Shown: one piece after another, positions 465 to 5,405 of the stretch | How the letters are laid out: every line of letters begins with the position of its first letter | How positions within the stretch are numbered: position 1 is the stretch's first letter | Origin: Alphaproteobacteria bacterium | GTDB taxonomy: Bacteria > Pseudomonadota > Alphaproteobacteria > CAAHEQ01 > UBA3637 | Length of the DNA: 64,000 nucleotides | Direction: 5' to 3' | Assembly: GCA_015062245.1 (NCBI GenBank) | Contig: SUVA01000003.1 | Location: 21,372-85,371 of the forward strand | Notes under the pieces: generated by a model | Databases searched by the model: none | What the model saw: only the letters and a program-made list of their open reading frames with translations | What the model was told of the DNA's origin: nothing | Made by a program: the position numbers and the translations under genes

Positions 465-3400
465 ATGGCAACAGAAGATATGAAATTTACCGAAGAAGGA
501 TTGAAGGAATCTATAAAAAATGGCGATATAGAAACGATAGAAAAATTTGTAAGTCTTTCCGGTGAAGATATTCTTTCTCAATTAGGGGTAAAAGGTCAAT
601 ATGATGATTTGTTGAAAGTTGCCGTGGATAAAGGTGATTTGAAAATGGTTAAAACGTTGTTAAAACGGTCAAATCTTATTCAGGCCTCTATGGATGACTT
701 TATTGATGGGTTGGATGAAAGTGCTTCGCAGGAGATAAAGACAGAATTAAGGAAATTTGCCGATTTGGAAAAAAGATCGAATTTGCAAACTTATAAGGGA
801 AAATGGAAAGAGTGGCAAACTGGTTTGAAAAAGGCTGAGGAAAATGGTTATGATGATTTGGCTGAAAAATTGAAAAACCGAATGGATTTTGAAAATAATC
901 GTCGTTTGGAAGAAGAAGGAAAACGTCCGGAAGGTATAAGCGAAAATCGTTGGTTCTTAAATGAAAATGCTTGGACGTTAAATGGCAAAGGTGGTTTGGA
1001 ATACCCGATGTATGGTCAGGATAATTCAGATGCCATTCGTGAAGAATTAAAACAAGCCGGTATAGAAACGGAATATACGTGGTATGAAGATAAAAAAACA
1101 AAATCTTCAACCAATTATCGTATTCGTATAAAATCAGAAGATAAAGAAAAATTAAAACAATTTTTGGAACAAAAAAGACAAGAAATGCAAGGAAAAGAAG
1201 ATTTAGAAGCAATAGTTTCAGGTCGTGAAGAAGGAGAGAGTTCTAATGACACACATGAAGAGGTTGTTTTTATAGATCCAAAACATCAAGAAGAACCTAC
1301 TGAAACATGGGTTCCTCCTGTTGTAAAAGAAGAAACAATAGTAGAACAACCAAAACAAAATAAAGGGGAAAAAGATATGCCAACAAATAAAACAGATTAT
1401 TATTATACAGACCCAGAACCTGAAACAGCCGATCATTTGGCTGAACATGCTTCTGCGGATATTAAAACAGCTGTCAATCCTGTTGAAAATAATATTGAAC
1501 AACCCGCCGAGGATGCGGTGGAAAATCCTCAGGCAGAGGTTGTTGTTAATCCTGAGCAACCAAAAGCTGAAAAGGTGCAAACAACAGTCAGAAATACCTT
1601 CCGTGATTTGAATAATTTGGATGCGCATATGCCCATTGGTCAGGTTTTGGCCCGCTTGGAGGATGTTGAATTTAAAGAAAATGAAATACAAAAGAAAGAG
1701 TTGTTTGATGAAATTAAACGTCAATATCAATTAAAACGTGAAAATCCTGATTATAAAGTTCAAGGATTAAATGGACGTATCAATTCAACGGATATGTTGA
1801 AGTTTGCCCAACACATTGACAATGTTATTGATGACGGAGAACCAGATAATATAGACTATACACAAGGTCATACAGAAAAAATTCGCAGTTTGGCCACTTT
1901 GGATCGTCATTTACAGATAAGCGAAGTTTTGGCCCGTTTGGAAGATGTGGCTGCAAAAACGCAAGATCCGAATGAACAAGCATTATTGGATTTGGTTCGT
2001 GAAGGTTATGAAGAAAAACGCAAATCTCCGGAAAATGATTTGTCGGGTTTGAATTCTTTTGTGGATTCAACCGCAGCTCTTAACTTGGCAAAACGTATAG
2101 ATTTGGCCATTGATGATGGTGAAATTGAAAATGTGGATTGTTTGATAATGGATACAGTTCAGGTTCAAGATTCAGACAAATCCAAAGAAAAAGATGTTGT
2201 TCAGGATGAAGTTGAAAGTAATGAAGCAGAAGGACGATCGGAAACAGATGAAAACCCAAAAGCATCAGAGATAGCTCAGGAAGAACCTGTTACAATTGAA
2301 TTACCAAAAGAACCAAATGAAGCCACTAAAGAGTTTTTGGATTTAAGTTGGGATGAAATGACAGCCGAAAAAATTCAAGATTTGAAAGAGCGTGGGGCGG
2401 ATTTTAATTGGCCAAACGAGCGTACTGGTCGTACTCGTATATTTGAAGTGGCAAATCATAAAGAAAGATTGCAGGCTTTGGAAAATCTTTTGGAAAACGG
2501 TGCAAATCCGAATGTTCAAGATAAAGAAGGACGTACTCCGCTGTATTCTGCAACATTGAATAATGATTATGAAATGGCTCGCTTGTTGGATGAAAACGGT
2601 GGGGATTTCACAATTAAGAATAATGATGGAAATATGCCAAAAGATTTATTGACAGGTGATGCAAATCCAAAATTGATAGAACTTGTTCAAAAAAGAACCA
2701 AAGAACAATTGGCGGAAAAAGAAAAAGATGAAATGGCCAAAAAAGAAATTGAAACATCTGAATCAGTCGAAATAGCTGAACCAGCGGGGGAAGGGCCAAT
2801 TGAAATGGCCGAACCAACAGCCACCAAAGAGATGGCTGATGATGAATCGTTTGAAATTCCTGAGCCGAGTGCTTCAAGGGGGGCTGACAGAGAAACCGAA
2901 GAAGGAATAGAGGTTCCTGAACCAAGAGCGAAAGCTTCTGATGAAGAACATGAGGGTATGAAAAGTGGTCCGGGATTTTGGGCAAATTGGCATAAATATC
3001 CCAATTATAAATTTATGTCAACAAATGAAGGTAAAAGTTTTCACGCCCGTCCATACTATTTTAATCCTTCAAAATTAACAGAAGAGGAAAAAGAATTAGC
3101 CAGACATATGTTGGCAGAAGCCGGTGTTAAAGTTGATGATGTAGAAGCTCCCCTTGATTTCAAAAAAGGCCCCCTTCCCATGGAAGAAGGTGATAAGGTT
3201 TGGCGTGTGACCGGAAACGATAACATCAAAAAATTAAAAAAATTCTTAAATGAATGCCAAAAAGATGAAGACAAAGCCTTGGGTAAGAAAGTGCGTCTTG
3301 TTAAACCAGTGGAAAAGGATGAAAAATCTGTTGATTGGAAAGGTGGTGCCAAGAAAGTCATTGATGGAACTGGTAGAGCCATAAAAGGAACCAAGGAGGC

Positions 3401-5405: not shown

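Follow-up and report, generated by a model that had tools for sequence, protein, structure and literature searches.

The 64-kb stretch of alphaproteobacterial DNA analyzed here (contig SUVA01000003.1, positions 21,372 to 85,371; hereafter the window) carries near its start a giant gene for a protein of 1646 residues. Comparison of its orthologs indicates that this gene must be a recombinant mosaic, in which segments appear to have been replaced from divergent alleles between related species. The interpretation that we favor, with a probability of about 0.42, is that the product is a dimeric adaptor or interaction factor, exposed or exported, which would act at the interface with another organism.

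The evidence for a mosaic structure comes from five congeneric sequences, namely those of the window and of P0003, P0005, P0006 and P0007, out of about 7 full alleles overall; the modules of the protein are lettered as in Table 1. The proteins encoded in the flanks of the giant gene are mostly 82–100% identical between these five congeners (PhoH 99–100%, PFOR 98–99%, Tgt 96% and PgpA 82–84%), the exceptions being the products of orf322 and orf299. Within the giant itself, the tandem domains D1-D2 are 98–100% identical in all congener pairs, with a ratio of nonsynonymous to synonymous substitution rates (dN/dS) of 0.009–0.020 at dS 0.24–0.38. The groupings of the congeners in the other modules conflict with each other: 1) In C2, the alleles of P0001, P0003, P0005 and P0006 are 83–93% identical among themselves and 44–46% identical to that of P0007. 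2) In E-F, P0003 and P0005 share 93% identity and other pairs 55–82% (57% for P0003 and P0007). 3) In D3, P0003 and P0007 are 100% identical, the window, P0005 and P0006 form a second group at 82–88%, and identity between the groups falls to 37–47%. 4) In H, the window, P0003 and P0007 are 92–97% identical and P0005 and P0006 80%, with 31–34% between the groups. The same pair of proteins can hence reach 100% identity in D3 and 97% in H, yet 46% in C2 (P0003 and P0007), or 93% identical in E-F, yet 47% in D3 and 34% in H (P0003 and P0005).

The replaced modules are alleles of 31–47% identity with sharp breakpoints. In sliding windows of nucleotide identity, P0003 and P0007 are 84–100% identical up to aa ~600, 39–64% identical over aa ~612–970 and 91–99% identical from aa ~1089, and P0003 and P0005 are 83–100% identical up to aa ~1112 and 41–55% identical thereafter. 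Between the window and P0003, dS ranges from 0.08 to 2.9 inside one gene. Because saturated dS adjoins dS of 0.1–0.3, the pattern points to recombination and not to faster protein evolution alone.

The gene itself had been picked out in an earlier note on this DNA, which described 465–5405 as a single open reading frame (ORF) occupying 7.7% of the window. This holds in full: the ORF spans 4941 nt without internal stop codons, and its product has a mass of 185.7 kDa, a pI of 4.9, a Glu plus Lys content of 23.5% and 2 Cys. The same 1646-aa protein is recorded on 3 contigs from independent sources (NCBI, JGI), the identical E7021_01505 belongs to a metagenome-assembled genome (MAG) labeled 'Alphaproteobacteria bacterium', and orthologs of 1263–2120 aa are intact in at least 10 genomes; the giant ORF is therefore real and not an assembly artifact. 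Its conserved modules show dN/dS of 0.01–0.3. The coding strand is rich in A and G, as the note had remarked (GC skew +0.13 to +0.35 and AT skew +0.13 to +0.29 over nt 1–5000). The DNA repeats in the gene detected by Tandem Repeats Finder (TRF) are short, with units of 27 nt x1.9 and 24 nt x2.5, and since the two ~90-aa repeats of the protein are just 43% identical, repeat collapse in assembly is no concern. The absence of a signal peptide, also reported in the note, is borne out by sequence and hydropathy, which reveal neither a signal peptide nor a transmembrane (TM) helix: the N-terminus is acidic, and the Kyte-Doolittle maximum is 1.22 for the protein (19-aa window) and 0.85 for its first 60 aa (11-aa window).

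Relatives of the giant are few. Nine were found among 5.8 billion clustered proteins, and HMMER, run exhaustively over 1.84 billion representatives with a profile built from the first 575 aa, matched 16 proteins, the distant full-length members including P0031, P0034, P0035 and P0041; a profile of the C-terminal half added fragments only. The members of the family are annotated as 'hypothetical protein', and the genomes that bear them come from rumen and gut metagenomes. The gene order phoH-ybeY-corC-orf93-gerE-GIANT-orf~320-pgpA-orf73-<orf~300-<dciA-<tgt recurs in 8/8 loci, and even P0035, the most divergent member checked, keeps it. Because it occupies the same chromosomal place in all 8 loci, the giant is a clade-restricted, vertically inherited core gene of a narrow rumen/gut clade of Alphaproteobacteria. 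Stewart et al. [quoted passage not shown] A placement of the present MAG in Rs-D84/Enterousia was considered and is not established; its relatives carry a glucokinase gene, reported missing in that order (PMC12306168).

The module map of the giant protein was derived from within-family hidden Markov models (HMMs) and two AlphaFold2 (AF2) models, which were computed from alignments of just 6–7 sequences and have a mean predicted local distance difference test (pLDDT) score of 59 and 51, with confident islands. A self-BLAST of the whole protein returned the identity match only, and the repeats were detected by comparison of segment against segment. The two tandem repeats of ~85 aa claimed in the earlier note correspond to D1 and D2, which are 43% identical over 87 aa (E 6e-24) and are modeled as helical bundles (pLDDT 70–88). 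D3 is probably a divergent third copy of the same domain, as judged from the following sequence matches: BLAST against the D domains gives E values of 0.07–0.13, a non-circular HMM of D1/D2 gives 0.02, collinear in several orthologs, and the P0035 copy equivalent to D3 matches the D1/D2 HMM at 1.3e-10. The link of D3 to D1/D2 by iterated within-family HMMs is circular, and we place the weight on the non-circular test bridged by P0035.

Modules B and C contain many invariant residues in the ortholog alignments. C and C2 have the same order of secondary structure elements and match in hhalign with an E value of 3e-4 and a probability of 40%, so that they are possibly related domains; both draw non-significant matches to KH/ferredoxin-like folds. 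Module A is modeled as pairs of helices (pLDDT 74–90), and positions 15–95 of the family profile match the ankyrin (ANK) array of an unrelated NACHT-ANK protein, P0040, in 8 stretches with an E value of 7e-7 (1.84e9 proteins searched); the Pfam Ank_2 model on the single sequence of module A gives 0.18. The conserved modules have no match in Pfam, NCBIfam, PADLOC or PDB sequences, or among the folds of PDB or BFVD. Between the modules lie two long linkers. Linker 1 has a pLDDT of 27–33, indels among orthologs and dN/dS of 0.3–0.7; in linker 2, 120–140 of 263 residues can be aligned to P0003, P0005 and P0006, at 30–35% identity. As a separate observation on the linkers, P0009 (L002), P0006 (L004) and P0031 (L010) have one or two copies of the linear motif '(M/V)PLWM.TGM.P.F' in their disordered linkers, whereas the window protein has none, and a second linker motif, '[FY].DP[DE].E.A[DE]', tends to stand before D domains in orthologs.

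The heptad coiled coil that the earlier note had seen near nt 4050–4210 is a leucine zipper, with Leu exactly 7 residues apart at the 'd' positions 1209/1216/1223/1230/1237/1244 and Ile or Asn at the 'a' positions 1213/1220/1227/1234/1241, and AF2 models aa 1197–1249 as a single long helix. Its matches to ZapB (21 bits, cut-off 31.5) and bZIP_1 (14.9 bits, cut-off 27.6) are below threshold and reflect coiled-coil composition only. Asn at 'a' positions favors parallel dimers, as in GCN4. The short repeat mentioned in the note is recognizable in the protein as a Pro-rich pair, DKTIVPPT/ADRTVVPPT. In 10/10 full-length members of the family, the C-terminal tail carries a net positive charge (+1 to +9).

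The presence of at least two ankyrin repeats near nt 2380–2660 is likewise upheld, with E values of 2e-10 for Ank_4 and 4.5e-10 for Ank_2, and scores of 41.1 bits (cut-off 22.7) for Ank_4, 40.4 (27.3) for Ank_2, 32.3 (21.1) for Ank and 29.9 (27) for Ank_5; in the giant protein this cassette alone passes the threshold of the Pfam Ank clan. The significance that the earlier note had attached to these repeats, in classing the protein with ankyrin-repeat giants, does not survive comparison. The cassette sits inside the hypervariable linker 2 and is confined to three near-identical members, P0001, P0002 and P0004, which are at least 92% identical to each other; it is lacking in nine orthologs (P0003, P0005, P0006, P0007, P0009, P0031, P0034, P0035 and P0041). 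Other members have a different sequence in linker 2, without domain assignment. The ankyrin repeats are an optional accessory cassette and not a defining trait of the family. By eye, the inserts of P0007 and P0031 had given the impression of leucine-rich repeats and those of P0031, P0034, P0035 and P0041 that of Sel1 repeats; searches of Pfam and PDB sequences support neither, and both assignments were dropped.

Immediately upstream of the giant gene lies gerE, which the earlier note had correctly recognized as a LuxR-type gene encoding a helix-turn-helix (HTH) domain only. The HTH is the sole match in its product, which has no autoinducer-binding or receiver domain and is 81–97% identical across 7 loci, with an invariant recognition helix. 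The NCBIfam model PedR, a 74-aa HTH-only regulator, matches it at an E value of 2.9e-10 and 40.2 bits, under the cut-off of 120. The spacer of 99 nt between gerE and the giant holds a predicted promoter that agrees with the consensus at 10/12 positions plus the TG, both hexamers being invariant in 9 loci amid variable sequence, and a ribosome-binding site (RBS) with GGAGG in every locus. The palindrome overlapping the -10 element has a stem of 10–12 bp (-14.2 kcal/mol) followed by T5–8, and is kept in 9/9 loci with compensatory changes in the stem (GGACCTA/TAGGTCT, AGGTC/GGCCT, GGGTCT/AGACTC). Because the stem changes while the recognition helix of GerE is invariant, the palindrome behaves as an RNA terminator and not as an operator; a role as GerE operator was rejected on these grounds, together with the T-run that follows it and the ordinary terminators elsewhere. 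We therefore read the hairpin as a putative terminator of gerE transcription. A giant transcript starting ~7 nt after the -10 element would begin inside the hairpin and so would escape termination, and read-through from gerE would be halted.

A metagenome scan found the orf93-gerE pair without the giant in related lineages, with dut, murJ or pckA downstream. The two genes thus form a conserved unit in a wider clade (window 1–365; L001 9363–9901; L017–L032). In the pairs without the giant, GerE is 68–81% and orf93 44–66% identical to the window, and an ordinary GC-rich terminator stands directly after gerE. Since a predicted terminator insulates the two genes, the giant has a promoter of its own, and the pair occurs elsewhere without it, gerE on this comparative evidence is a neighbor by synteny and not a dedicated regulator of the giant. 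Two further observations concern locus L017. A similar hairpin there spans the -10 element of another promoter; and the ORF after gerE at 1060–1533 (GerE 78% identical; 158 aa to the contig end) has ankyrin-like repeats from its very start (Ank_4 below threshold, E 1.4e-3) and could be a strongly diverged equivalent of the giant.

In the interpretation favored here, the zipper would dimerize the giant into an elongated adaptor, whose invariant D1-D2 core would dock onto a highly conserved partner, and whose exchangeable modules (ankyrin in the window protein, other cassettes elsewhere) would bind strain-variable targets. The partner at the interface would be a host, a partner cell or a phage, exerting diversifying selection, and export would be independent of Sec. 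An exposed or exported role is favored because the reassortment of modules in a near-identical genomic background is typical of antagonistic or partner-specific interfaces. The mosaic, diversifying evolution and the basic C-terminal tail on an acidic protein are compatible with an effector-like role. Recombining mosaic interaction proteins are familiar from other bacteria, examples being the streptococcal M proteins, the coiled-coil surface proteins of the PspA type and CagA of Helicobacter. By analogy, the giant may be likened to them in its conserved anchor or core, its recombining allelic modules, its coiled-coil dimer and its sharp breakpoints in a conserved genome; it differs in sharing no homology with them, in having no sorting or secretion signal, and in belonging to another bacterial group. 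More tentatively still, and with doubt outweighing confidence, the giants might constitute an undescribed family of recombining adaptors, in which D1-D2, with a new fold, would lock onto a conserved target (in the host or partner cell, or in an unrecognized export machine), the cassettes would set the specificity, and inter-species recombination would act at one fixed locus; the whole would amount to a modular system for switching specificity.

Several points weigh against an exposed or exported adaptor: 1) The 64-kb window and the ~10-kb flanks of the 8 loci yielded no genes of type IV, type I or type VI secretion systems (T4SS, T1SS, T6SS). 2) No export signal was seen in the giant. 3) The binding of targets by the variable modules is extrapolated from the ankyrin cassette alone. 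4) The case for recombination draws on about 7 alleles. 5) The overall confidence of the AF2 models is low and their alignments are shallow. 6) The housekeeping block, the fixed site in all loci and the strong, constitutive-looking promoter fit an internal structural protein equally.

The last of these points leads to the best surviving alternative, which is possible and which we hold to be rather doubtful: a cytoplasmic or envelope-tethered scaffold, whose zipper dimer would organize bacterial proteins at the inner membrane in the manner of a polar or division hub. It would be anchored via the orf322 product or the 'AFPFDFLD' motif, and its D1-D2 would sit on a conserved housekeeping partner. 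Such a scaffold agrees with the lack of a signal peptide, TM helix and repeats-in-toxin (RTX) repeats in the giant, with the strict synteny in a housekeeping block and with the near-consensus promoter and strong RBS. The gene arrangement also speaks for it, the gap between giant and orf322 being 24 nt and orf322 overlapping pgpA. The two genes are probably co-transcribed, and the orf322 product may be a partner of the giant. This membrane protein, which has no Pfam family above threshold, combines the invariant motif 'SHPFIPAYTP..MPSQGKS' with an alpha/beta region that is conserved at the C-terminus; its gene keeps its place in every locus, and at 57–69% identity among congeners it is fast-evolving. 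Its divergence parallels that of C2-E-F of the giant over five genomes (67/65/69/57/53% against 93/89/89/44/43%), a parallel of five points that is confounded by overall distance.

Acidic coiled-coil hub scaffolds are known in Proteobacteria, among them HubP/FimV, PopZ and PodJ, and the acidic disordered linkers, coiled coil, several protein-binding modules and chromosomal core position of the giant may be reminiscent of them. In contrast to the giant, they are not mosaic and are held in place by TM, LysM or peptidoglycan-binding anchors, and no similarity of sequence or fold to them was found. The searches also gave no homology to hub, division or cytoskeletal proteins in general, the ZapB match of 21 bits against 31.5 being a case in point. 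A further objection to a scaffold is that internal hubs are not known to swap whole modules for alleles of 31–47% identity between congeners whose flanking genes are mostly 82–100% identical.

We regard it as unlikely that the giant is an ankyrin effector of an intracellular alphaproteobacterium, delivered by a T4SS of the VirB/D4 type or by a T1SS and possibly controlled by LuxR, although the ankyrin cassette is a true one, the protein is large, acidic and low in Cys, with a basic tail and no signal peptide, and its evolution is mosaic. The inclusion of UBA3768 among small-genome rumen Proteobacteria and the partner dependence proposed for another gut order (PMC12306168) would also suit such a role. 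As regards the giant acidic ankyrin effectors of Rickettsiales, Ank200 of Ehrlichia chaffeensis and AnkA of Anaplasma phagocytophilum, the giant may be compared with them as a large, acidic protein with few Cys and no signal peptide, in which ANK repeats lie between long low-complexity or repeat regions, and as a conserved chromosomal gene of small-genome Alphaproteobacteria. It differs from them in the absence of homology, HMMER with its N-terminal part having returned its own clade and generic ANK arrays only; in addition, its ANK repeats are an optional cassette and not the core, and it is known from sequence alone.

The earlier note had counted the giant among typical T4SS or T1SS substrates, a reading whose premises are weakened by the results. 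Its best NCBIfam matches are the Legionella Dot/Icm effectors AnkY/LegA9, AnkH/LegA3 and AnkG/LegA7, at 33, 20.4 and 15.4 bits against cut-offs of 600, 600 and 500; these matches cover aa ~648–730 only, that is, the ankyrin repeats that the giant shares with them, and it is not a member of these families. The giant protein has no GGxGxD (RTX) motif, and no genes for an ATP-binding cassette (ABC) transporter, membrane fusion protein (MFP) or TolC adjoin it in any locus examined. In non-RTX substrates of T1SS, such as those of the Ehrlichia TRP/Ank200 type, the C-terminal ~50 aa are rich in the residues LDAVTSIF and poor in KHPMWC. The last 50 aa of the giant contain 48% of the former and 18% of the latter, by a criterion without validated threshold. 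Substrates of T4SS of the VirB/D4 type have a positively charged C-terminal translocation signal, with which the C-terminal charge of the giant (+9 in the last 50 aa and +1 in the last 20 aa of a protein of pI 4.9) may agree, as a non-specific feature. Against an effector speak the lack of ANK in most family members, the search of window and flanks for genes of a T4SS or T1SS, which gave none, and the predicted insulation of gerE, which is present elsewhere without the giant. Intracellular life is likewise unsupported: genes for a complete rod-shape and peptidoglycan apparatus (MreB, MreC, PBP2, RodA, lytic transglycosylases) lie in the window, as do those for PFOR and glycolysis, and the source is a rumen/gut MAG. 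Membership in the Rs-D84 order, for which partner dependence was proposed, is not established either, since relatives carry the glucokinase gene that is reported missing there (PMC12306168).

It is very improbable that the giant is a polymorphic toxin or an anti-phage defense protein, with a conserved N-terminus, a variable C-terminal effector and an immunity or partner gene downstream. The C-terminal modules do vary, in discrete allele classes, and the downstream gene is fast-evolving, but Pfam and NCBIfam detected no enzymatic domain in any member, whether toxin, nuclease, ATPase or other, and PADLOC returned the ANK cassette only, as a generic match. Furthermore, orf322 does not track the H allele, since the window shares H with P0003 and P0007 (92–96%) at an orf322 identity of 67% and 57%; variable regions also occur mid-protein, and the locus is a fixed core locus and not a defense island. 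An artifact, whether a chimeric assembly, a decaying pseudogene or a chance ORF in purine-rich DNA, would draw on the purine-rich strand and the repeats, and is practically dismissed by the identical product on independent contigs, the intact orthologs, the low dN/dS of the conserved modules and the shortness and divergence of the repeats.

Table 1. Features of the giant gene and its neighbors (nucleotide positions refer to the window; residues are those of the giant protein)
Feature	Position (nt)	Residues (aa)	Strand	Description
orf93	3' end before ~108, window edge			93 aa, without known family; pairs with gerE
gerE	129..365		+	78-aa product, GerE/LuxR HTH only; Pfam GerE 67.8 bits (cut-off 23.5), at aa 18-71 of the product
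Giant promoter, sigma-70-type (predicted)	395..422		+	TTGACA (395-400), 16-nt spacer with extended TG, TAAACT (417-422)
Terminator-like hairpin and T-run	418..452 (hairpin 418-444)		+	Overlaps -10 element of the giant promoter
Ribosome-binding site	453..458		+	AGGAGG, 6 nt 5' of the ATG at 465
Giant ORF	465..5405	1-1646	+	ATG start, intact, 1646 aa
Module A	495..758	11-98	+	Degenerate ankyrin-like helical repeat, kept across the whole family
Module B	within 774..1187	104-156	+	Helical hairpin (HMM, AF2)
Module C	within 774..1187	157-241	+	Small beta-alpha-beta-beta-alpha domain (HMM, AF2)
Linker 1	1197..1592	245-376	+	Acidic, Pro-rich, predicted disordered, length-variable
D1-D2	1599..2138	379-464 and 473-558	+	Tandem ~86-aa helical domains
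Linker 2	2151..2954	563-830	+	Hypervariable, non-homologous between orthologs
Ankyrin cassette	2373..2645	637-727	+	Pfam; whole cassette about aa 622-750, ~2 full repeats and flanking caps
Module C2	2967..3251	835-929	+	Second beta-alpha-beta-beta-alpha domain, with 'GPGFWANW...RPYYFNP' (HMM, pLDDT 70-80)
Module E	within 3432..3968	990-1044	+	Holds 'AFPFDFLDIYL', the hydropathy maximum (HMM)
Module F	within 3432..3968	1063-1168	+	Helical, ends 'YPADYxGPVTPEVLLNH..GW' (HMM, invariant residues)
Pro-rich short repeat	3987..4038		+	DKTIVPPT/ADRTVVPPT; TRF 27-nt unit x1.9, seen in the protein
Leucine-zipper coiled coil	4053..4205	1197-1247	+	Six heptads
D3	4335..4616	1291-1384	+	Divergent D-like domain; AF2 helical bundle, pLDDT ~80-86
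Module H	4956..5231	1498-1589	+	C-terminal conserved module (HMM)
C-terminal tail	5253..5402	last 50	+	Basic, S/T/K/Q-rich, net +9
orf322	5430..6398		+	Membrane protein, N-terminus with hydrophobic segments; 24-nt gap to the giant, overlaps pgpA
orf299	7094-7993		-	299-aa Cys-rich protein, N-terminal hydrophobic leader

Beyond orf322, the window contains several other genes that deserve mention. The product of orf299 gives weak Link/C-type-lectin-like matches (Xlink E 0.019, A33R E 0.09) and is syntenic in all loci and 71–74% identical among congeners. At 6858–7097 (+), an ORF of 79 aa rich in Cys (CxxCxxCCPC...CPC...HCHC) is 99% conserved among congeners and weakly matches the beta chain of ferredoxin-thioredoxin reductase (E 0.004). 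A protein of 396 aa without family at 18729–19919 (-), in a region of local GC content 0.46, has a weak prepilin N_methyl motif (E 0.012) and may be pilin-like. At 16138–17004 (-), adjoining the succinyl-CoA ligase genes, lies a gene whose product has a diadenylate cyclase (DAC) domain (E 3e-39). An integrated element of ~7.6 kb with a GC content of 0.29–0.32 lies at tRNA-His (20194–27858), bounded by a 66-nt direct repeat (20194–20259 and 27793–27858; 88% identical) in which the 5' part of the tRNA is included; its genes include a tyrosine integrase (26358–27542), PrimPol-DUF3987 (23688–25925) and HTH_3 (22051–22548). The rest of the window is made up of housekeeping genes, such as those for PFOR, succinyl-CoA ligase, GAPDH, UvrB, PheST, AspRS, PlsX and Tmk.

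The general kind to which the giant belongs is a familiar one, that of the giant, repeat-bearing, recombining interaction protein, here in a small-genome bacterium; its conserved modules are without detectable relatives. It also carries a warning, in that the ankyrin repeats, which draw attention first, are accessory and do not characterize the protein. Alphaproteobacteria with small genomes are frequent in metagenomes of the rumen and gut and have yet to be cultured. That such a lineage spends ~5 kb on one gene, keeping one part of it near-fixed and shuffling the rest between species, makes this gene a promising lead to whatever these bacteria adhere to or manipulate. Should the giant prove to be exported, the group would gain its first candidate interaction factor, and in D1-D2 a novel binding domain whose target is conserved; should it prove internal, it would stand as an uncommon example of a bacterial scaffold that recombines.

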